Under the pieces are notes generated by a model. That model was not told where the DNA came from, did no database searches, and saw nothing but the letters and a program-made list of their open reading frames with translations. Below, in pieces: positions 4,155 to 61,474 of a DNA stretch of 64,000 nt (position 1 is the stretch's first letter; every line of letters starts with the position of its first letter). Origin of the DNA: Minisyncoccota bacterium (GTDB lineage: Bacteria > Patescibacteriota > Minisyncoccia > Phycocordibacterales > UBA9973); assembly GCA_028718635.1 (NCBI GenBank), contig JAQULK010000001.1:607834-671833 (forward strand), written 5' to 3'. The position numbers and the translations under genes are program-made.

Positions 4155-4416
4155 ATAAATTATTGTTTTTGTTTATGTTTAGGGTTGGAGCAAATTATCT
4201 TCAAATGCCTGGCTCTTTTAACCATTTTACAATTGGCACAAATTTTTTTTACTGCTGATTTTATTTTCATAAAAATTTCGAAAATTCAAATAATAAACAA
4301 GAAAAACAAGGAGAATACCCTTATTTTTCAATACTATAACTTTTTAAAACCTACAATTAATATAATACACTATTCTTTAAAAAAACACAACCTGTCTGTC
4401 GGCAGGCAGGCTCCTT

Positions 4417-4662
4417 TTACAATCTTTTAATTATTCTACCTTTTCCGCCATAAGGATCCAGCACCATCTCGACGGAATCTCCAATCAAAACTTTAATTCT
4501 GTGCATCCGCATTTTTCCTCCCAAATATGCTAAAATTTCTTTCTCCTCATCATTTACTCTTACTCTAAATAAAGTAGAGGGCAAAGCCTCAGTGACGATT
4601 CCTCGCGCTGTTTGTAATTTTTCCTGCCTGCCGGCAGGCAGGTCTTTTCGGAAGTCACTCAT
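4417..4662 (-). CDS. infA: Translation initiation factor IF-1, with an N-terminal extension that carries an in-frame palindromic insertion
   Basis: GIVTEALPSTLFRVRVNDEEKEILAYLGGKMRMHRIKVLIGDSVEMVLDPYGGKGRII is the IF-1 S1 fold. The LPAGRQ segment is encoded by the palindrome at 4623-4642. Confidence 0.85.
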   Translation of the reverse strand: MSDFRKDLPAGRQEKLQTARGIVTEALPSTLFRVRVNDEEKEILAYLGGKMRMHRIKVLIGDSVEMVLDPYGGKGRIIKRL

Positions 4663-13656: not shown

Positions 13657-15015
13657 TTATATTGGCAAATTCGTAGGCGGAGAAGCTTCTTTGGATTCGA
13701 TACGTTCAAGTGTAGGAACTTTCAAGATCTGACCTGGGAAGTGCCAGATTGTCGCAAGCTCTTCAACATTCAAAACATAAGTTTCGTGATGAGCATAGGC
13801 ATTTATTACAGAATCAAAAGGCCATTTCCAATGATGCTTTGAGAAAAGATGATGCCGAAGCGGAAGATGAAAAAAGGCACGCTCGCGATATTCATGAAGC
13901 ATTCTATTTGCCAGCATCATCACCGTTTCATTAGAGGCAAGAAAAGTACCGCTATAAAAATCCGCCTGAGCTGAATTTATACGATAAAATTCATTACAAT
14001 CAGGTCTGGCATATTGACGAAAGAGGAGACGCATGTTTCTTCTATTGCTCAAATTAAATACTTCTTTTTTTCCTATATACATTATGCGAACACCAGTTTC
14101 AAAACCTATCTTGGAAGTTTTGGCAGACATTGCCGCTACGGCATTTTTCAAAAAATCAGCAACACGAACCTCTATTCTTTTTGGTCCCTCACCCTTAAAA
14201 TCATCTTTAACAGCAGTATATGGTTTCAAAAATCTGAGCATTTCTTTTTTTGCCTCTTCTACCCAGCTATGTGGAACGTTATCAGAACCTGGTTTTGGTG
14301 TAATGACGATCTGGATCCATCCTTGCTCCCCTTTCTTGAGCGAACCGAAAAATTCTATCACTGGAGAAATAGGGTCAACTTTAAATTCTTCTTTTGGGTC
14401 TTTGTCTAATCCGAAATCAACATATGTTTTAATAGGATAAGCAAAATGTTTTGTCAATTTAAACTCGCATCCCCAGCCATTCCAAGCGCTCTCGGGACTA
14501 ATCTCATCCACAGCCAAAGTGTAATCCTCAACTACTTTTACCTGCGCTTGCGGATATTGCGCATACATCTGAGTCTCGATAAGATCTTTGATGCGTGAAG
14601 GCGTTCGTATATAAAAATGTACTTGTCCGTCGATAGACGCTATCTCCAATGAAAACCAAAACCAGACAGCGCCTTGCCAAAATTCTTCCTTGCCTCCTTT
14701 TATACTCCAATGATAAAGGGCATTAGTAAAAAAAAGTTCCATTGCTTTCGGGCTTCGCAATACCTCGCGCGGTGGGACTATTTCAAGCAACACAAACTCT
14801 ATGCCAGAAATAAAATCCTGCTGAACATAATGTACCCAAAGCTTCCAAGCGAGCCAGCCTAAAAATATCGTTCCGGCCAAGGCCAAAACCCCTATTTCGA
14901 GGTTGTATCTCCAAATCAAAAAACCCAGGATCACAACCACAATCCCAATCCAATAATTTTTTATAAAATCAAAAATCTTTTGCTCAATAGTTGGCCCCGT
15001 TTTTGCTTCCGCCAT
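13657..15015 (-). CDS. Hypothetical membrane protein (two N-terminal transmembrane helices)
   Basis: ORF only; no family recognised. It contains a half-copy of the REP hairpin at 14659-14672. Confidence 0.3.
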   Translation of the reverse strand: MAEAKTGPTIEQKIFDFIKNYWIGIVVVILGFLIWRYNLEIGVLALAGTIFLGWLAWKLWVHYVQQDFISGIEFVLLEIVPPREVLRSPKAMELFFTNALYHWSIKGGKEEFWQGAVWFWFSLEIASIDGQVHFYIRTPSRIKDLIETQMYAQYPQAQVKVVEDYTLAVDEISPESAWNGWGCEFKLTKHFAYPIKTYVDFGLDKDPKEEFKVDPISPVIEFFGSLKKGEQGWIQIVITPKPGSDNVPHSWVEEAKKEMLRFLKPYTAVKDDFKGEGPKRIEVRVADFLKNAVAAMSAKTSKIGFETGVRIMYIGKKEVFNLSNRRNMRLLFRQYARPDCNEFYRINSAQADFYSGTFLASNETVMMLANRMLHEYRERAFFHLPLRHHLFSKHHWKWPFDSVINAYAHHETYVLNVEELATIWHFPGQILKVPTLERIESKEASPPTNLPI

Positions 15016-15051: not shown

Positions 15052-15079
15052 CCCAGACAGCGCCTTAGGCGCTGTCTGG
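15052..15079. repeat. REP-like palindromic hairpin, copy 1
   Basis: CCCAGACAGCGCC TTAG GCGCTGTCTGG. The stop codon of the Y1 transposase gene lies in the loop. Confidence 0.6.
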
Positions 15080-15745
15080 TAAATCTTCTTCTTCAAGTAG
15101 AGAAGTTTTTCCTCTCTCCTTTCTAACTATTGAAACAATTTCGTCACAATGTTTTTTAAAATTTCTACTCCCATTAAAAATTTCTAATATCCTTTTTCCT
15201 TCCTCTTTTGAAACAATTTTAAAATTATTATTCTCGTATTCGTAATCACTAGCAATCGAAAGAGTTACTTTATTTTTTGGAATATTGTGAATTTGATAAT
15301 TTTTATTTACATAGCCAATGATTTTGTTAAAATAATTTTCATTACTAATGATTTGCGATTTAAAGGTTCCTTGAAAAAGTGACCCTGTGCGAGAATTTTT
15401 AATATTAAAGTAGGAAGTATATCCCGCTTGCAATTTTTGCATAAATTTAGCTATACCTCCATCCACTAACTGTTTTAAAACAAAATGAAAATGATTCGGA
15501 TTTAAACAATAAGTAGCAAAAGAAACCAATGGCTCTTTGGATACCTTAGACAACGCCTTAGGCACGGTCTTATCTTCATTTTTTCTTGCATTTCTTATGC
15601 TACCGATAATTTCTGTTTGATTAAATTCAGAAATACTTTCAATAAAGCGATCTAAGTCTTTCCTATTAAGAAAAATATCCCTTTTATCTACTCCACGATT
15701 GTAAATATGGTGGTACTCGCCCGTAACGATTGGTTGTTTTCTCAT
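15065..15745 (-). CDS. Y1 HUH transposase-like protein (IS200/RAYT-like TnpA homolog)
   Basis: YHHIYNRGVDKRDIF aligns to the IS200 TnpA start. NPNHFHFVL is the HxH motif. A C-terminal Y-containing helix is present. REP-like hairpins lie at both ends. Confidence 0.55.
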   Translation of the reverse strand: MRKQPIVTGEYHHIYNRGVDKRDIFLNRKDLDRFIESISEFNQTEIIGSIRNARKNEDKTVPKALSKVSKEPLVSFATYCLNPNHFHFVLKQLVDGGIAKFMQKLQAGYTSYFNIKNSRTGSLFQGTFKSQIISNENYFNKIIGYVNKNYQIHNIPKNKVTLSIASDYEYENNNFKIVSKEEGKRILEIFNGSRNFKKHCDEIVSIVRKERGKTSLLEEEDLPDSA

Positions 15746-15760
15746 TCTGTAAGTATAACA

Positions 15761-15785
15761 CAGACAGCGCCTAAGGCGCTGTCTG
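15761..15785. repeat. REP-like palindromic hairpin, copy 2
   Basis: CAGACAGCGCC TAAG GCGCTGTCTG. Confidence 0.6.
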
Positions 15786-15786
15786 A

Positions 15787-16641
15787 TTAACTCATTATTT
15801 TTATTGTTTTAAAGTTTTTAGAATCTAAACCTTTTATTGATATGTTTTCTTTTGTTATTTTACTAGATGCAATTTGAGAAGGAGAAAGCACGTATTCTTG
15901 GTAGCTATCCCCTATCTTTTTTAAAACTCCAATCCCTGGCCAAAATTTAGCCACGGAGGTTTTTGTTGTTCCGACTGGTATACAATTTGCCATTTTCATA
16001 CAAAAAACTATTATTTTTTCTTTTGCGCGATTGTACGCACGTCTTTTAGGGACTGTATAATACGACTGATGTAATAATTCTATTTTTTCTCTCCATAGAG
16101 GATCTTTGTCTTGACCTGGCTTTAAACGTACATTCAACTCAACCATATGTTTATGACGATCATCTAATTTAGGAAGTCCGCCCAATTCTTTTTCCATTAA
16201 TATGATTTTCTCTTTTAAGTCTTTTTCAAATTCTTCAGGTTGATAATATGACCTTACTGGTGTAAGAGTAAATTTTATATTTACTGGCAGATAGTCCTTA
16301 AGAAAATCAACAATTGCAATAAAACTCTTGGCGTAACTATCCGTATAAGCTTTTGGAATATTATTCATTCGTTCCACAATAATTTCATCCGAACTGAAAT
16401 CAAATTCTACCCCAGGTTTATATACTTCTGCTATTGGCTTTAGCCAATTCGTATAATACATCAAGGTAAATAATTCCGACCAATCCGCCTCCGGAGTTTC
16501 TTCCAGACGCCAAAGTTTATAACCACCAAATGGAAAAATTAATTTTATCGGTAAATTATTTTTTATGCTATTTGCTATAGCTTCGTAAATTTTAGGAATA
16601 TATTCAGGAGTTACGGCAAATTTCCTGAATTTTTTAGACAT
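15787..16641 (-). CDS. Hypothetical protein
   Basis: ORF between REP copies 2 and 3; no recognisable motifs. Confidence 0.3.
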   Translation of the reverse strand: MSKKFRKFAVTPEYIPKIYEAIANSIKNNLPIKLIFPFGGYKLWRLEETPEADWSELFTLMYYTNWLKPIAEVYKPGVEFDFSSDEIIVERMNNIPKAYTDSYAKSFIAIVDFLKDYLPVNIKFTLTPVRSYYQPEEFEKDLKEKIILMEKELGGLPKLDDRHKHMVELNVRLKPGQDKDPLWREKIELLHQSYYTVPKRRAYNRAKEKIIVFCMKMANCIPVGTTKTSVAKFWPGIGVLKKIGDSYQEYVLSPSQIASSKITKENISIKGLDSKNFKTIKIMS

Positions 16642-16716
16642 CAGGGTTTTGAATATAAAATCAGCTGATTCCTTATCGGATGAATTTTAACATAATAAAA
16701 TTTTTATACAAAAAAA

Positions 16717-16743
16717 CCAAACAGCGTCTTAGGCGCTGTCTGG
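16717..16743. repeat. REP-like palindromic hairpin, copy 3 (two mismatches)
   Basis: CCAAACAGCGTC TTAG GCGCTGTCTGG. Confidence 0.5.
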
Positions 16744-16762
16744 GAATAAAAAAAAGAAATTT

Positions 16763-17872: not shown

Positions 17873-19708
17873 TTATCTTTTTGCCCTAGCTCGATCAATT
17901 TCCGTCAAAAATCTCTTGCGAAGTCTGACGGATTTGGGCGTAATTTCCAAGTATTCATCTCTATTCATCACCTCCAGACCTCGTTCGATACTTAAAATAA
18001 AAGTAGGATTTAAGGTTATCGCTTCATCAGTACCAGAAGCTCGCATATTGGTAAGCTGTTTTCCTTTTGTAGGATTGACAGACATGTCGTCTCCTTTAAG
18101 AACGTTACCAATCACCATCCCTTCATAAACATCCGTACCATGACCTATATACAGTATACCACGTTCTTGTAAGTTTGCAAGAGAAAAGGCTACCGCTTTG
18201 CCAGAAACCATCGAAATCATAGAACCGTATTCCCTCTTTTTTATCTCTCCTGCATATTCTCTAAATCCTGTAACTCTTGAACTCATTATCCCTTCCCCTT
18301 TAGTGTCTATGATAAACTCGCTGCGATATCCCAAAAGTCCGCGTGTCGGTATGTCAAAAATAATTCTAGCAATACCTTCTTTTTCTACCATGTCTTTCAT
18401 GATGCCTCGTCTTTTGCCAATTTTCTCTATAACGCTTCCGGAAAATTCCATCGGAACATCGATCACTAGCTCTTCATAAGGTTCTGTCTTCACGCCATTC
18501 TTTTCTTTTATAATAACTTCTGGTTGAGAAACTTGCATTTCAAAACCTTCTCTTCTCATATTTTCAAGCAGTATTGCGATGTGCAATTCTCCTCTGCCAT
18601 ATACTTTAAAAAATGAGGGGCCTGACTTATTTTCGTTTTGGTTCTGGAGAACCTGCCTGCCGGCAGGCAGGAAATCAACCTTGAGCCCGACGTTGATCTC
18701 TAATTCTTTTTCTAATCTTTCTTTGATTTGTCTTGAAGTGACAAACTTGCCTTCAAGACCTGCAAAAGGAGAATCATTTACTAAAAAATTAAGAGAAAGA
18801 GTCGGCTCATCGATAGCGATGTGCGGCAATATCTCTACGCTCTCGTCCTCGCATATGGTTTCTCCGATATAAATATCCGGAATTCCAGCCAGAAGAACGA
18901 TATCACCCGAAGTTGCAGAATCTATTTCTTTTCTATTTATCCCCTCGAAAACAAAAAGTTTTGTAATTTTCCCCCGGCGGATTTTCTCCTCGCCGTCAAT
19001 ATTGCCTTTTATAAAAACCTGGCTGCCTGATATCATCTTCCCGGAATAAATCCTAGCCACTGCCATTCTTCCTAAAAAATTATCATAACCCAAATTAAAA
19101 ACTTGCGCAGACATTTTGCCATCTTTGTTTACAGAAGCTGGAGGAACTTTTTCTAGTATTAGATCTAATAAAGGAGAAAGATCTGCTGATTCATCGCCTA
19201 AATGCCTGAAAGCTTTCCCTTGCCTGCCAATTGCATATATCGTTTCAAAATTGGCTTGCTCTTCATTTGCACCCAATTCAAAAAACAACTCCAAAATTTC
19301 TTCATGCACTTTATGCGGATCAGCTGCCGGCTTGTCTATTTTATTTATAACCACTATGGGCTTGAGGCCTAATTCCAAAGATTTTTTTAAAACGAATCTA
19401 GTTTGCGGCATCGGTCCTTCTGCTGCGTCTACCAACAGCAACACGGAATCTATGGCACGCAAAACCCGCTCCACTTCTGATCCGAAATCCGCGTGGCCAG
19501 GAGTATCTACGATGTTTATCTTTGTGTCTTTATAATAGATGGAAGTATTTTTTGAATAAATAGTAATACCACGCTCTTTTTCTAGATCGTTTGAATCCAT
19601 TGATACTCCTTCATCTTGAAGACCACCATTTTGCTTCATCAATGCATCAGTCAAGGTCGTCTTGCCATGATCCACGTGAGCTATTATTGCTATATTTCTA
19701 ATTTCCAT
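17873..19708 (-). CDS. typA: Translational GTPase TypA/BipA, with an in-frame palindromic insertion
   Basis: IAIIAHVDHGKTTLTDALM G-domain with the BipA layout. FLPAGRQ is encoded by the palindrome at 18652-18671. Confidence 0.85.
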   Translation of the reverse strand: MEIRNIAIIAHVDHGKTTLTDALMKQNGGLQDEGVSMDSNDLEKERGITIYSKNTSIYYKDTKINIVDTPGHADFGSEVERVLRAIDSVLLLVDAAEGPMPQTRFVLKKSLELGLKPIVVINKIDKPAADPHKVHEEILELFFELGANEEQANFETIYAIGRQGKAFRHLGDESADLSPLLDLILEKVPPASVNKDGKMSAQVFNLGYDNFLGRMAVARIYSGKMISGSQVFIKGNIDGEEKIRRGKITKLFVFEGINRKEIDSATSGDIVLLAGIPDIYIGETICEDESVEILPHIAIDEPTLSLNFLVNDSPFAGLEGKFVTSRQIKERLEKELEINVGLKVDFLPAGRQVLQNQNENKSGPSFFKVYGRGELHIAILLENMRREGFEMQVSQPEVIIKEKNGVKTEPYEELVIDVPMEFSGSVIEKIGKRRGIMKDMVEKEGIARIIFDIPTRGLLGYRSEFIIDTKGEGIMSSRVTGFREYAGEIKKREYGSMISMVSGKAVAFSLANLQERGILYIGHGTDVYEGMVIGNVLKGDDMSVNPTKGKQLTNMRASGTDEAITLNPTFILSIERGLEVMNRDEYLEITPKSVRLRKRFLTEIDRARAKR

Positions 19709-25735: not shown

Positions 25736-27022
25736 CTAATGATACCATTTTTTTAGTTTAGTCAAAATTTTTACTAAAACTTTTATAGTATAATCAATAT
25801 CCTCTTTTGTTGTATCTCTGCCTAAAGAAAAACGCACTCCACCAGTATCATCATACCAAGGGTTCCCCTTGGCAAGTTTTACCAAGGGGAACCCTTGGTA
25901 TTGTGCTTGACGAATTGCTTTGATTACATAAGATCCTCCGCTTTCCCCGCTCTTGCACGCGCTCTTGGCCGACGTCATTATCCCCTTTGCAGAAAGTTCA
26001 ATCACTAATAGATCGCTCGGAATTTTTGGAAATGTTACATTTACATTATTCGGCAATCTATTTTTCAAATCTCCATTAATTATATAACCTTGCGGACGTT
26101 GGACGTCCGATTTTCGGACGTCCAACGTCCGCAACCTCTCCATAAAATAATTACGAAGTTTTTCCAAGCGTTTGCTTTCTTGTTCTTTAATATTTTGCGC
26201 TGATTTTAATGCACAGGAAAATTTTAAAATCTCCGGCAAATTTTCCGTGCCTGGACGAATTCCTCCTTCTTGATCTCCCCCGCCGAACACCTTCGCAAGC
26301 TTAATCGTTTTCTTTTTATAAAGAACTCCGACTCTGCCAGATTCCTGTATCTTTGAGCCGGAAAGTGAAAGCAAATCTATACCCAATCTCTCCACGTTTA
26401 GATCTAGATAATTTACCGCTTGTACTGCATCCGTATGGAAGAGCGGGAAAATACACCTCTCCCCAACCCTCTCCTTATTAAGGAGAGGGTGCTGAAAGCG
26501 GGTGAGGTTCTTCCAATGCTTAATTGCCTTTGCAATTTCTTTTATTGGCTGTATTGTCCCTATTTCATTATTCGCATACATTACCGAAACAAGTACAGTA
26601 TTTTTTTTTATTTCTTTTTTTATTTTTTTTGGATCTACTATTCCATTTGCTTCGACTGGTACGATCGTTATTTCTGCCAGCTTTCTTTCTGCTAACAACT
26701 TGCAAGTCTCAAGAACCGATGGATGCTCTATGTTAGTTGTTACAATATGCGGCATACGGAGGCAATTCCTCCGTACGGAGAAATTGCCTCCGTATGCTTT
26801 TTCAAACCAAGCCCACACTACTCCCTGTATTGCAAGATTGTTGCTTTCTGTACCACCACTTGTAAAAATTATTTCTTCTGGTCTAGCGCCCAAAATATCA
26901 GAAACTTCTTTCCGTGAATTTTGAAGTTTAATTTTTGCTTCTACCCCAGCCCTATGTACAGAACTAGAGTTTGCCGACGCGCTGGCGGCATAATCTAGAT
27001 ATATTTCATTTGATTTAGGCAT
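25736..27022 (-). CDS. Cysteine desulfurase (class V aminotransferase, NifS/IscS-like) carrying four in-frame palindromic insertions
   Basis: IYLDYAASA...FTSGGTESNNLAI and the PLP-lysine region SGSKI match cysteine desulfurases. The protein is about 40 aa longer than usual; the extra segments YQGFPLVKLAKGNPW, LRTLDVRKSDVQRPQ, RFQHPLLNKERVGER and AYGGNFSVRRNCLRMPH each sit on a palindrome. Confidence 0.75.
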   Translation of the reverse strand: MPKSNEIYLDYAASASANSSSVHRAGVEAKIKLQNSRKEVSDILGARPEEIIFTSGGTESNNLAIQGVVWAWFEKAYGGNFSVRRNCLRMPHIVTTNIEHPSVLETCKLLAERKLAEITIVPVEANGIVDPKKIKKEIKKNTVLVSVMYANNEIGTIQPIKEIAKAIKHWKNLTRFQHPLLNKERVGERCIFPLFHTDAVQAVNYLDLNVERLGIDLLSLSGSKIQESGRVGVLYKKKTIKLAKVFGGGDQEGGIRPGTENLPEILKFSCALKSAQNIKEQESKRLEKLRNYFMERLRTLDVRKSDVQRPQGYIINGDLKNRLPNNVNVTFPKIPSDLLVIELSAKGIMTSAKSACKSGESGGSYVIKAIRQAQYQGFPLVKLAKGNPWYDDTGGVRFSLGRDTTKEDIDYTIKVLVKILTKLKKWYH

Positions 27023-38027: not shown

Positions 38028-39045
38028 GATAACCCTGTGTCTGTCTTAGGCACAGACATTTGGCGGTTTAATTAATTGATAATCTTCCAGAAATTCATTT
38101 GGCGTTTTTCCATTTAAACCGCAATGTTCTAGATTGTTGTAATATATATTCCATCTTTTTAATTTCTTTTGCAAATCTTTGAAACTTTTAAATTTGTTTT
38201 GCTCGTAGAATTTCTCTTGGTCTTCCCGATGGCTGCGTTCCACAGTGCCATTTTGAGCTGGCTTACCGGGATCAATCAAGTAATGGATGATATTGTTCTC
38301 ACGGCAAAAAATATCCAAAGGGTGTAGGGTTTTCACCCTAACATCACTTCTTTTGTTGGTTCCTAGGTAGTAATTGGTAAAAACAACCCCATTGTCTGTT
38401 TTAATCGCTTGGATTTTGTATTTAAATATTTGCATCACTTCTTTTAAAAACAGAATCGAATGAAAATTAGTTTGTTCATCGTAAACAGCTAGATGTCTCC
38501 ATCTTGAAGCTGTATCGATGGCTGTATATTGAAAATATCTTTTGTTTGCAATACGTCCAGGAACATATTTCACGTCAATTTCTAGTAGTTCTCCTGGTTG
38601 TCTTTCGGCTTTAATATATTTGTATTTGATTTTCTTTACCCGATATTTTCGCACCAAGTTTTCCTTTTTTAGAATCTTACCGACTGTTCGTTCGTGAATT
38701 TCAATACCTTCCTTCTTTAACTGCCAGTGTATTTTGAGTGCGCACTTTTTTGTTTTCTTTCTAACCTCAACCACTCTTTCTTTCATCCAAATTGGAGTTT
38801 CGTTTTCCTGTGTTTTCGGTTCAGTTGATTTAGGTTCCAGTCCTGCTTCTCCTTTCGCTTTATAGGTTGCTACCCAGCGTTCTAGGCTTCGTTTACTGTA
38901 TGGACAAACCCCAACTGTATCAACTATTTTAACTTTCTTCTTTACAATTGGCAGCACCCACCTCAACCTCTCTTCTTTGATTGTTTTAGCCATAGATATG
39001 CTCATTCCTCCATTTTAGGAGAAACCGCCATATGTGTGTGCACAT
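38028..39045. mobile_element. IS481-family insertion sequence (single DDE transposase, imperfect terminal inverted repeats)
   Basis: Ends GCACAGACATTTGGCGGTTT (left) and AAACCGCCATATGTGTGTGC (right) match about 18 of 20 as inverted repeats around the transposase ORF. Confidence 0.55.
38046..39005 (-). CDS. IS481-family DDE transposase (rve integrase core)
   Basis: N-terminal HTH; catalytic D (ELLEIDVKYV), D (AIKTDNGVVF), E (NGTVERSH) with IS481-like spacing. Confidence 0.75.
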   Translation of the reverse strand: MSISMAKTIKEERLRWVLPIVKKKVKIVDTVGVCPYSKRSLERWVATYKAKGEAGLEPKSTEPKTQENETPIWMKERVVEVRKKTKKCALKIHWQLKKEGIEIHERTVGKILKKENLVRKYRVKKIKYKYIKAERQPGELLEIDVKYVPGRIANKRYFQYTAIDTASRWRHLAVYDEQTNFHSILFLKEVMQIFKYKIQAIKTDNGVVFTNYYLGTNKRSDVRVKTLHPLDIFCRENNIIHYLIDPGKPAQNGTVERSHREDQEKFYEQNKFKSFKDLQKKLKRWNIYYNNLEHCGLNGKTPNEFLEDYQLIKPPNVCA

Positions 39046-46474: not shown

Positions 46475-48958
46475 TTATATACAAGCAAGTGATGCAATAC
46501 CATCACCGGCACGAAGGCGCATTATTGTCACTCCTTGAGTTTGACGGCCCAGAGAAGAAATATCTTTTAAAGCTGTCCTGATGACTTGTCCTTTCTTAGA
46601 CATGGCAATTAATTCCAGTTCTTCTCCTGATAAAACCTTTGCCACGATGAGTTTGCCGGTTTTGGAAGTTACTTTGGCTGTTTTCACGCCTGAACCCCCG
46701 CGCTTTTGAACTTTGTATTCTTTTAGAGAAGTCTTTTTACCAAAACCATTTGCGCTCATCGTGAGGAATGCTCCCTGCCTGCCGGCAGGCAGGCCTTTTT
46801 CCATTTCCTTCTTCACGACATCCACACCGATAACCTCATCGCTCTTCCTTAGTCTGATACCACTCACTCCTCCGGCCGTCCTGCCCATCTCGCGCACGTC
46901 GGACTCTTTAAATCTGATCGATTGGCCATTCGCTGTGGCGATCATCACTTCATCCCCTTTTTCTACAGAAAGAGCAGAGACAAGCTGATCATCCTTATCA
47001 AGGCGAATAGCAATAATCCCGCTTCTGCGCACGTCTTTGAAGCTCTCCGAGGACATTTTTTTGGCTGTGCCATCTTTTGTTACCAACATAAGCGAGGAAG
47101 AAGCCTTGGCTAAATCTTTCGGCATTGCCAAGATGGAAGTCACTTTTTCATCAGAAGAAAGAGAAAGAAAATTCATAATGGATTTTCCTTTTGTCGCTCT
47201 CCTGCCCTCGGGAATATCATACATTTTCATTTGATAAACTTTGCCGAGGTTCGTAAAGAAAAGCAGATTGCTGTGGGTAGAGCCGGAAACAAGCTTCGTA
47301 ACAAAATCTTCTTCTTTGGTTTCAAGATCAATTACGCCCACACCTCCCCTTTTTTGGGCATGATATTCAGACGGATCTGTGCATTTTACATAACCGCCGG
47401 CTGTGAGTACGAGCATCGTTTCTTTTTCTGGCACTAGATCTTCGTCAGAAATTTCTTTCACTCCGCCTTTCACTATTCTCGTCCTTCTTTCGTCCGCGTA
47501 TTTTTCGCGGATTTCTTTCAATTCACTGGCAATCACTTTTAATATTTTCTTTGAACTAGCAAGCAAATCTTTCATCGCCTCGATAAACTTTTGTTTTTCT
47601 GCAAGCTCATCTTCTACGGCTTTTCTCTCCAGTCCGGCCAATTTAGCCAATTTCATTTCCAAAATAGCAGTCGCTTGCAAATCTGAAAACTTAAATTCTT
47701 TCATTAAATTCAATTTTGCAAGTTGAGAATTCTTGGATCCGCGGATAATAGTAATCACGCGATCTATCTTGTCTAATGCTTTTTTCAATCCAAGTAAAAT
47801 GTGTTCGCGCTCTTGAGCTTTTTTCAAATCATATGCGGTTCTCCTTTTAACAATCTCTTTTCTATGCTCTATAAATAAGGCTAAAATGGATTTGAGAGAT
47901 AAAGTTTGCGGCACGCCATCCACCAACGCAACCATATTAAAATTAAAATTTGATTCAAGCTGGGTATTTTTATAAATATAATTTAAAACTTTTTCCGGAT
48001 GAGCGCTCGATTTTAAATCGATCACCACTCGGATATCTTTGGTAGATTCATCTCGAAGTCCTTTTATACCTTCAAGTTTTTTCTCTTGAACTAATTCGGC
48101 AATGCTGATTATTAAATTAGCTTTATTTACTCTGAAAGGTAGAGAGGTGATAATAATAGAAAAATTCCCATCTTTTTGTTCTACAATCTCTGCTTCACCT
48201 CTACACACTACTCCGCCTCGCCCTGATCCATATGCATGAAGCATGTCTTTGTATCCATAAGCGATACCGCCAGTAGGAAAATCCGGTCCTTTGACAAATT
48301 GCATCAGATCTTCGGTAGTTGCCTCACTATTTTCAATTAAATAATTTGTAGCATCAAGAATTTCCGCCAAGTTGTGCGAAGGAATATTTGTCGCCATGCC
48401 GACAGCGATACCGAGCGTGCCGTTTAGAAGCAAGGCTGGAACAGCAGAAGGCAAGACTATCGGTTCTTTACGGGTCTGGTCATAGTTTGGACGAAAATCA
48501 ACTGTTTCTTTTTCCAAATCTCTCAATAACTCATTGGAGATCTTCATCATTTTTGCTTCCGTATAACGCATAGCTGCAGCATTATCTCCGTCGATTGAAC
48601 CAAAGTTCCCTTGTCCCCAAATCAAAGGATAGCGATAGGAAAACTCTTGAGCCATTCCAACCATGGTGTCATAAACAGCCGTATCACCATGTGGATGATA
48701 TTTTCCGAGCACATCTCCGACTATCGCCGCGGACTTTCGAAAACGCGCCGAAGAAGTAAGACCCATTTCATTCATGCCAAATAATATTCTGCGATGCACT
48801 GGTTTCAATCCGTCTCGAACATCCGGCAAAGCGCGCGAAGTGATGACTGTCATCGCGTAGGCGATATACGACTCTTTCATCTCTGCCACGATATCAACCG
48901 GCAAAATGCTATCTGCTCTTATTTCTTCGTTTAATTCTGGTGTAGACTTTTTTGCCAT
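46475..48958 (-). CDS. gyrA: DNA gyrase subunit A, with an in-frame palindromic insertion
   Basis: [26 protein letters not shown], the AMRYTEAKM active-site tyrosine region, C-terminal beta-pinwheel repeats. GLPAGRQ is encoded by the palindrome at 46774-46793. Confidence 0.85.
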
Positions 48959-61189: not shown

Positions 61190-61474
61190 ATATATATACT
61201 AGCATAAAATGAAAAATCCTCCGAACGGAGGATTTTTCTAAGAAATCCCGACCTATGTCGGGATCCCGACTTTGGTCGGGACTATGCTCGCTTCTTTGTA
61301 GTCTTTTTTGCTGCCTTCTTTGCTTTCTTTTTTGCTGCCATATTATTTGTCGCTTACGCGAAATTATTTTTTTAATTTTAGTTTGCAATAAACCGACCGA
61401 AAATATTTATTGCTTCGAACTACATTAATTATCTCGCATAATAAAAAATTAAACAATACTTTTTTCACAAAACT

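Follow-up and report, generated by a model that had tools for sequence, protein, structure and literature searches.

A RAYT-related Y1 HUH enzyme gene with fixed partner hairpins in a Minisyncoccota genome: a probable REPtron-like unit

We analyzed a stretch of 64,000 nt from a Minisyncoccota bacterium (contig JAQULK010000001.1, positions 607,834 to 671,833; hereafter the window), in which a gene for a Y1 HUH enzyme is accompanied by several copies of a short hairpin. Gene and hairpins probably form a unit similar to a REPtron, i.e. a gene for a TnpA-Y1 single-stranded DNA (ssDNA) endonuclease/transferase of the HUH type, related to the tyrosine transposases (RAYTs) that are associated with repetitive extragenic palindromes (REPs), together with the hairpins that this enzyme recognizes. 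The feature is real and well supported, and the core idea of a preliminary description of this DNA, which had seen a Y1 transposase homolog bracketed by REP-like hairpins, was right. It is not a canonical REP/RAYT system. What is new is the fixed layout of three hairpin sites, which recurs with unrelated hairpin sequences among relatives of the enzyme.

Results

Hairpin copies in the window

The hairpin sequence CAGACAGCGCC-TWA-GGCGCTGTCTG is found in three copies in the window, plus a decayed fourth copy inside the enzyme gene. A 25-mer scan allowing up to three mismatches returned exactly three sites (15054-15078, 15761-15785, and 16718-16742, the last with two to three mismatches), where the number expected in shuffled sequence is zero. 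In addition, all 64 kb were searched, with filters off, with a covariance model derived from 147 related hairpins. The downstream hairpin (D; 15052-15080, minus strand, 46.5 bits) overlaps the end of the enzyme gene, which occupies 15065-15745 on the minus strand and encodes 226 aa. The last codons of this open reading frame (ORF), CCA GAC AGC GCC TAA, form the 5′ arm, encoding P-D-S-A, and the loop of D; as had been proposed, the stop codon therefore sits in the loop. The upstream hairpin (U; 15759-15787) is inverted relative to D: it scores best on the plus strand (42.7 bits, compared with 34.6 on the minus strand), and on one strand the loops on the two flanks of the gene point opposite ways (TTA vs. 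TAA). Both methods thus confirm that hairpins lie on either side of the gene. The third copy, previously placed at 16717-16743, was recovered at 16716-16744 (minus strand, 34.9 bits) with two substitutions; it separates a sigma-r4/HARE-HTH gene from a truncated gene. The fourth copy, which had been overlooked, is the internal hairpin (I; 15545-15573, minus strand, 17.3 bits, E = 0.075). It is decayed here and encodes K-T-V-P-K-A-L-S-K in frame.

All four hairpins fall inside 1.7 kb, in a surrounding of low GC content with genes almost all on the minus strand, and the covariance model found no fifth copy in the remaining ~62 kb. Folded as ssDNA, D reaches −16.1 kcal/mol (z = −8.3), U −14.2, and the third copy −8.3 kcal/mol.

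Two further resemblances reported earlier did not hold. At the site of a supposed half-copy (14659-14672), a 14-nt match exists (14661-14674), but it is ordinary coding sequence of a DUF8128 gene. It encodes a conserved Q-G-A-V-W motif that 12 homologous genes keep with other codons, and is therefore no independent hairpin copy; its identity to the hairpin 3′ arm, 400 bp from the hairpin and at synonymous sites, may reflect chance or micro-conversion. A likeness to the hairpin had also been noted at the left end of an IS481-like element. The hairpin model gives no match there, even at E = 10, and this end (38036-38060) folds as a different 8-bp stem in another register, at −5 kcal/mol.

The enzyme

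The 226-aa protein is a Y1 HUH enzyme with an intact HUH/Tyr center and the fold of TnpA-REP. As the preliminary description had supposed, the Pfam profile Y1_Tnp recognizes it (27.4 bits, cut-off 23); no other Pfam family matched at E ≤ 0.1, including any C-terminal helix-turn-helix (HTH) or DnaA_C domain. The NCBIfam RAYT model NF047646 gave 27 bits against a cut-off of 80, and 27-42 bits for relatives. We collected 2675 homologs, the best 120 of which share 70-84% identity, and 11,006 relatives among 1.8 billion cluster representatives, mostly 210-230 aa long. In an alignment of 79 sequences reaching 32% identity, H13, N84, H85, H87, N114, G121, Y145, and N149 are invariant. The HUH motif is H85-F-H87, within N84-H-F-H87, and the catalytic Y145 stands with N149 in GYVNKNY; a further motif is L123-F-Q125. 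The tyrosine motif, Y145-V-N-K-N149-Y150, thus reads Y-x3-N-Y, and this Y replaces P throughout the close family.

An AlphaFold2 model based on the homolog alignment (predicted local distance difference test score 90.4) includes a helical domain at residues 150-215; its confidence is low in the two stretches that hairpins encode (residues ~55-70 and 215-226). The best PDB match in Foldseek was 4ER8_A, the E. coli TnpA-REP with a REP hairpin bound (E = 4 × 10−5, template modeling score 0.66 on the target), ahead of the TnpA proteins of IS608 and ISDra2. Only this fold comparison was informative against the PDB: the single sequence found no match, and profiles reached 4ER8 only at E ~0.5. In PHROGs, neither the enzyme nor the 284-aa ORF of the truncated gene found a match.

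Two relatives are in-frame deletion variants, P0139 without the catalytic core and P0124 without the HUH region, so that some enzyme copies are decaying. They were considered as products of hairpin-to-hairpin excision. The break in P0139, the sole junction examined, lies at an 'ISK' direct repeat and not at a hairpin.

A fixed three-hairpin layout in homologous loci

A metagenome scan yielded 80 loci encoding close relatives in this Paceibacterota family, and almost all of them share one layout: a hairpin 25-50 nt upstream of the ATG, one inside the gene, and one over the stop codon. The internal hairpin lies at +170 to +204 nt (codons ~57-65) and reads ...(T/I)APKALS... in frame, and the downstream hairpin supplies the last four codons, with the stop in its loop. 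All three hairpins were detected in 53 of 81 loci. Correspondingly, the C-terminus is PDSA in 51 of 120 homologs; the others end mostly in translations of variant arms (PDRV, PASA, PDRG, PERA), and a few in PDSALGAI, a read-through of a flipped loop.

Hairpin variants across loci include CAGACAGCGCC, CAGATAGCGCC, CAGCCAGTGCC, CAGAAAGGGCC, CAGATAGAGGTT, and CAGATAGGGGTT, among others; the consensus of 147 distinct hairpins is nCCAGAYAGnGCCTAAGGCnCTRTCTGnn. Copies within a locus differ at 1.6-2.1 of 25 nt, compared with 5.1-5.6 between loci, and none of 2000 permutations gave a distance as low. Across the 147 hairpins, 84% of the alignment cells pair. Cells with a double change number 206, where 90 are expected (a count reached in none of 500 shuffles), and pairing collapses once the stem partners are slid by one to three columns. 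Hence, the hairpins are base-paired structures that evolve in concert inside a unit and differ among lineages and paralogs. Frequently, one arm is duplicated in tandem, or a truncated hairpin stands beside a full one.

Orientation is also largely fixed. Among unique loci, 42 of 55 U hairpins have TTA as their center triplet, whereas TAA is found there in 43 of 47 I hairpins and in 42 of 60 D hairpins. U is usually the reverse complement of I and D, and loci with co-oriented U and D, such as L007, L009, and L020, form a minority. Since a flipped internal loop would put TAG in frame, hairpin I never flips.

Given their fixed positions across the 80 loci and their covariation with the gene, the hairpins are cognate to it and not generic terminators. 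The partnership of gene and hairpin suggested by the preliminary description is thereby borne out, and no other gene end in the window carries the hairpin.

Distant relatives and paralogs

The distant set comprised five relatives at 33-45% identity (L085, L086, L088, L089, and L090) and a paralog of the YIHLNP type in L057. Their hairpins are unrelated in sequence (GGTGTTGGACACC, TTCCAACACTCGGTGTTGGAA, GAACGAAGTTGGACTTCGTTC, ACAGACGTTGGACGTCTGT, CGGACATCGAATGTCCG, and ACTGCTAGG-TCTTG-CCTAGCAGT), and border hairpins are nevertheless present in all six, with a copy at +170-190 in four. U and D loops could be compared in L088, L089, L090, and the L057 paralog, and are inverted in three and identical in L088. 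In L086, two in-frame internal hairpins each encode FQHSVLE, and in two distant relatives a site after the Y motif occurs in place of or besides the main internal one. This shared layout with unrelated hairpins means that the pairing of enzyme and hairpin is old and specific, as it is in REPtrons (PMC6006769, PMC8266576).

Within one Nomurabacteria metagenome-assembled genome (MAG), the paralogs A2643_01970 and A2643_03460 are 75% identical and have different hairpin variants. The YIHLNP-type paralog of L057/L058 (124-813, minus strand) lies 4 kb from the main Y1 gene and is homologous to the main enzyme over its full length at 33% identity. Of its hairpins (119-143 and 816-848), one lies 2 nt upstream of the start codon, and the one at the stop codon has a duplicated 3′ arm. 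No second Y1 gene was found in the window.

Promoter and transcription

An extended −10 promoter-like box, TGTTATACT (15752-15760, minus strand), abuts U and ends 6 nt upstream of the ATG. A TGnTATAAT box with at least seven of eight matches is present in 52 of 67 loci (compared with 6% of shuffles), and in 47 of 65 loci it ends exactly 6 nt upstream of the ATG, which suggests a leaderless mRNA starting at or beside the ATG. The unit therefore spans from hairpin to hairpin, with its own promoter and stop. The same arrangement of −10 box, 6 nt, and ATG was also seen in L003 (2480-2576), ahead of a prepilin-peptidase gene beside a solo hairpin; if it is widespread in these genomes, leaderless transcription would be a general habit and no peculiarity of the Y1 gene.

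All three well-preserved hairpins of the window are terminator-like on the coding strand, each at a gene end. D and the third copy match the terminator pattern there; the T tract of U is poor. GC skew is negative on the plus strand across the whole window, so the gene would be co-oriented with replication, with its sense strand serving as the lagging-strand template.

Genomic contexts and rearrangement

The enzyme gene always resides in strings of co-oriented genes, and about ten genomic contexts recur among its loci. The neighboring genes are ordinary housekeeping genes and form no defense island. A single copy is present in 64 kb. The enzymes of the close family (c0) share 77% identity, compared with 79% for the sigma-r4/HARE-HTH neighbor, and 80.5% compared with 83.6% for PilC; a divergence equal to that of conserved neighbors argues for long residence. 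In a neighbor-joining (NJ) tree without support values, the enzymes are only partly congruent with context, each of the contexts B, C, and D being found in clades far apart.

Several loci point to gain or loss of the unit. In a Nomurabacteria MAG, a PilC-pilin-pilin-prepilin-peptidase string has only a solo hairpin at the position, before the peptidase gene, where relatives carry the unit. In the same MAG, dnaK is followed directly by a DUF8128-type gene, and the terminator there, AAAAGCCTCC-TACT-TGGAGGCTTTT, is an ordinary one. A relative at 84-87% protein identity shows at the dnaK spot AAAAGCC, a hairpin, and GGCTTTTT, then a 197-aa gene, and then the unit, which ends in a hairpin and again GGCTTTTT. 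The dnaK-c1 junction is thus empty in L002, whereas in L060, a related locus, it is occupied and the hairpin sits inside the former terminator.

In nine cases an additional gene separates the unit from its usual neighbors, and in eight of these hairpins bracket that gene. The window itself contains such a gene. Between U and the third copy lies a 5′-truncated gene (15787-16689, minus strand), made up of an ORF of 284 aa (15787-16641), past whose stop codon U begins after 1 nt, and an upstream in-frame remnant. The ORF belongs to a Paceibacterota family of ~321 aa, one homolog of which is named Dit1 in one source, and starts at residue 39 of a homolog with 85% identity. Upstream of it, the in-frame reading is ...PDSA-stop-DAVW...C-stop-NSSDKESADFIFKTLM, in which the hairpin precedes what is left of the lost N-terminus. 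In related loci without an inserted gene, the corresponding neighbors are separated by a single hairpin. One homolog of the 284-aa ORF was looked up (P0274, in three near-identical assemblies), and it stands in a different context without a match to the hairpin model. Taken together, the empty sites with solo hairpins and the 5′-truncated gene between two copies suggest hairpin-mediated rearrangement.

Outside the unit, only a few hairpins were detected in 264 kb from 34 related loci. One of these, at 7837-7888 of L026, is a perfect palindrome of 52 nt made of two Y1-type hairpins as an inverted dimer, similar to a REP doublet forming a hairpin (REPIN); it overlaps the end of a ProRS-like gene, to which it gives the last residues PNSALDSV and the stop codon. 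In L002 (7680-7735, a Nomurabacteria MAG), the exact window hairpin is present in frame in a gene for a PaaX-like regulator, as one truncated and one full copy (...RDSALGAQTAPKALSGENY...). The 8-kb stretch of L002 contains no homolog of the enzyme gene.

Other palindromes and elements in the window

The genome of the window holds several families of short palindromes that colonize coding regions. A gene for a class-V aminotransferase similar to cysteine desulfurases (ORF 25736-27022, minus strand) contains two in-frame palindromic dimers (26090-26134 and 26752-26797), which encode LRTLDVRKSDVQRPQ and AYGGNFSVRRNCLRMP; the first is an inverted pair (GGACGTTGGACGTCC) whose loop, GTTGGAC, is the one that characterizes the hairpins in L085, L088, and L089. 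The palindrome CCTGCCTGCCGGCAGGCAGG occurs four times (18652-18671, 46774-46793, 4623-4642, and 4391-4410). Two of its copies encode LPAGRQ in frame, in an 827-aa ORF and in TypA/BipA, where the palindrome takes the place of a short variable loop of homologs. Tandem pairs of TCCCGAC-NNNN-GTCGGGA are present at 1824-1859, in frame in a 328-aa ORF (VPTVVGIPTKVGK), and at 61246-61281, in an intergenic region.

The IS481-like (rve-type) element occupies 38036-39042. Its transposase gene lies at 38046-39005 on the minus strand, and TGGCGGTTT terminates both of its imperfect terminal inverted repeats (TIRs). At the left end there is one more small palindrome, in a register unrelated to that of the Y1 hairpin. 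No hairpin halves were found beside the element.

Discussion

Comparison with known systems

Our literature search found no paper linking RAYTs or REPs with Patescibacteria or the Candidate Phyla Radiation (CPR). The closest known arrangement is the REPtron of E. coli TnpA-REP (PDB 4ER8; PMC8266576, PMC3479197), with which the unit shares a Y1 HUH enzyme of the same fold, an apparently low-copy gene placed between its own palindromes in inverted orientation, and the co-evolution of hairpin and protein, each paralog having its own hairpin type. The REP/RAYT signature proposed in the preliminary description was therefore sound as regards the Y1 enzyme and its cognate, inverted flanking hairpins, but not as regards GT[AG]G, the tetranucleotide that canonical TnpA-REP needs as a guide at the 5′ foot of its hairpin, dispersed repeats, and the NCBIfam equivalog cut-off (27 vs. 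80 bits). In the window and in 264 kb of related loci, the hairpins are not dispersed in high copy. Further differences are the motif Y-x3-N-Y instead of the Y-x3-N-P of class 2 (PMC6006769), the length of 226 aa with a helical C-terminal domain, and signs of gain and loss of the gene unit itself. A low-copy, vertically inherited gene would fit the single copy in 64 kb and the conserved synteny, yet not so readily the empty sites, the incongruent tree, and the ten or so contexts.

Two TnpA-Y1 subclasses deserve closer comparison. By its motifs the enzyme comes nearest to subclass 2.1/TIRYT, as judged from Table 1 of PMC6006769 and not from the hidden Markov models of its authors. Like the members of these 'TIRtrons' (Di Nocera 2013, PMC3733652; PMC6006769), it has NH[YF]H and FQ motifs and ~230 aa with a C-terminal extension, and its flanking sequences are inverted repeats of each other; in the same genomes, moreover, the YIHLNP-type paralog matches it from end to end (33% identity). 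It differs from them in having perfect hairpins of the CAGAYAG type, where theirs are TIRs with GGGGWSAS, and in the absence of any C-terminal HTH (Bac_DnaA_C/HTH_23/HTH_28) detectable by Pfam. Subclass 2.1 proteins (~238 aa) have been reported without REP-like structures (PMC6006769). In subclass 2.4 (group 4 of Bertels; Quentin et al. 2018, PMC6006769), as here, cognate palindromes lie within the transposase gene, in a peripheral loop and with the frame kept. Here, however, the main site lies between strand beta1 and the HuH motif (codons ~57-65), it recurs at that position both among c0 members and, with unrelated hairpins, in four of the six distant relatives, and a further copy supplies the stop codon.

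The elements IS200, IS608, and ISDra2 likewise combine a Y1 HUH fold with hairpins at both ends of a unit of ~0.7 kb, and their single-strand mechanism, tied to the lagging-strand template, offers a plausible analogy. Their enzymes, however, are Y-x3-Q proteins with a core of ~150 aa only, compared with 226 aa and N at Y+4 here, and they are multi-copy and near-identical with co-oriented end hairpins, where the present unit is single-copy in 64 kb with mostly inverted ones.

Short palindromes within genes are familiar from the Rickettsia palindromic elements, which are dispersed and read through in frame in many protein genes. Furthermore, REPs that provide stop codons or overlap tyrosine-transposase genes have been described (PMC3733652). 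Unlike these elements and other intragenic REPs, the in-frame copy found here belongs, as a constant feature, to the gene of the enzyme itself.

A REPtron-like unit as the most probable explanation

If gene and hairpins form a REPtron-like unit, as we consider probable, the enzyme would bind the folded hairpins on ssDNA and, by analogy, cut and rejoin them through a 5′-phosphotyrosine link, a chemistry established for E. coli TnpA-REP and IS608 TnpA (PMC8266576). Its action, gene conversion, or both would keep the copies of a unit alike and would leave behind solo hairpins and duplicated arms. Occasionally, DNA bounded by hairpins might be moved or deleted, be it the unit itself or a neighbor such as the truncated 284-aa ORF. 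The U hairpin appears well positioned for auto-regulation of the promoter, and the flanking hairpins may double as terminators or insulators.

Several observations weigh against this explanation. The internal hairpin is decayed in the window genome, where its ssDNA fold (−3.3 kcal/mol) does not surpass that of shuffles, and is therefore not indispensable. No GTAG or GTGG adjoins the hairpin foot in either orientation, neither in the consensus of the 147 hairpins nor in the window. When G·T and A·C mismatches were compared as a guide to the folding strand, one stem position was encouraging, and the counts over all positions were mixed. Since the hairpins are almost confined to the unit, the case for dissemination is weak. 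Moreover, gene conversion between repeats 200-700 bp apart could explain the concerted evolution without any enzyme, and plain homologous recombination between flanking copies could account for gain and loss of the unit.

Alternative explanations

The unit could instead be an autonomous insertion sequence of the IS200/IS605 kind, about 730 bp from hairpin to hairpin, which is excised and inserted as ssDNA with the hairpins as its left and right ends. We regard this as rather unlikely. Size and layout do resemble IS200, and mobility would fit the recurrence in about ten contexts, the presence/absence polymorphism with empty sites marked by a solo hairpin or an ordinary terminator, the incongruence of the NJ protein tree (which has no support values) with context, and the decayed copies without a catalytic core. 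However, an active element is hard to reconcile with one copy in 64 kb and with paralogs of one genome that are only 75% identical and have different hairpins, and that are therefore not recent copies. The contexts are conserved and the core neighbors equally diverged (c0 77%, sigma-like neighbor 79%). In addition, the enzyme has Y-x3-N where IS200 transposases have Y-x3-Q (PMC6006769, Table 1), its best fold match is TnpA-REP, and its end hairpins are mostly inverted, those of IS608 being co-oriented.

A more far-reaching proposal, which we hold as a minority possibility and think unlikely, is a single-strand cut-and-paste system that works from hairpin to hairpin and moves whole genes in the streamlined CPR genomes. 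If this were true, any DNA between two hairpins would be a movable cassette, including the enzyme's own unit from promoter to stop, and the system would be an integron-like device for gene shuffling in which an HUH enzyme replaces the tyrosine recombinase. It would account for the variable genes bracketed by hairpins, the captured 5′-truncated gene, the solo hairpins, and the unit's repeated arrival in the same slots. As a built-in substrate, the conserved in-frame hairpin could then be the means by which the enzyme acts on, or limits, its own gene.

Possibly, though we judge this quite improbable, the protein has become a domesticated hairpin-binding regulator that no longer cuts DNA, with the hairpins serving as operators or attenuators of its own gene and insulating the neighbors. 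Such a role would fit the fixed distance at which U abuts the −10 box, the coding-strand match of D and of the third copy to a terminator pattern, and a gene that is conserved like its core neighbors and always placed in co-oriented strings. A pure DNA binder, however, would need none of H85, H87, Y145, and N149, which are invariant even in very divergent relatives, and breakage and joining of DNA are suggested by the solo hairpins, by the duplicated arms, and by the gene that is truncated where it meets a hairpin.

Finally, it is very improbable that the hairpins are ordinary rho-independent terminators, alike through local duplication and near the Y1 gene by coincidence: the three window copies are indeed called terminator-like on the coding strand, each at a gene end, but one copy lies in coding sequence at a conserved position and another upstream of the promoter with a poor T tract, the sequence accompanies the gene through 80 loci and covaries, and no other gene end in 64 kb carries it.

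Significance

REP/RAYT systems are among the commonest bacterial repeats, and work on them has dealt almost entirely with Proteobacteria and Cyanobacteria. Here, the enzyme family is found in the CPR, in genomes of about 0.7 Mb with little room for selfish DNA. The system is pared down to a bare unit, in which a single enzyme gene is joined by three hairpins at fixed sites and dispersed copies are nearly absent, and the enzyme is nevertheless conserved like its core neighbors. Proteins similar to subclass 2.1, reported so far without REP-like partners, can have them. The unit thus provides a compact model for the service that a RAYT-type enzyme renders its host, or its effect on that host, and, with many natural hairpin variants and their compensatory changes in hand, for how the specificity between hairpin and enzyme co-evolves. 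The empty sites and the truncated captured gene offer concrete cases in which gene rearrangement by such enzymes can be studied.

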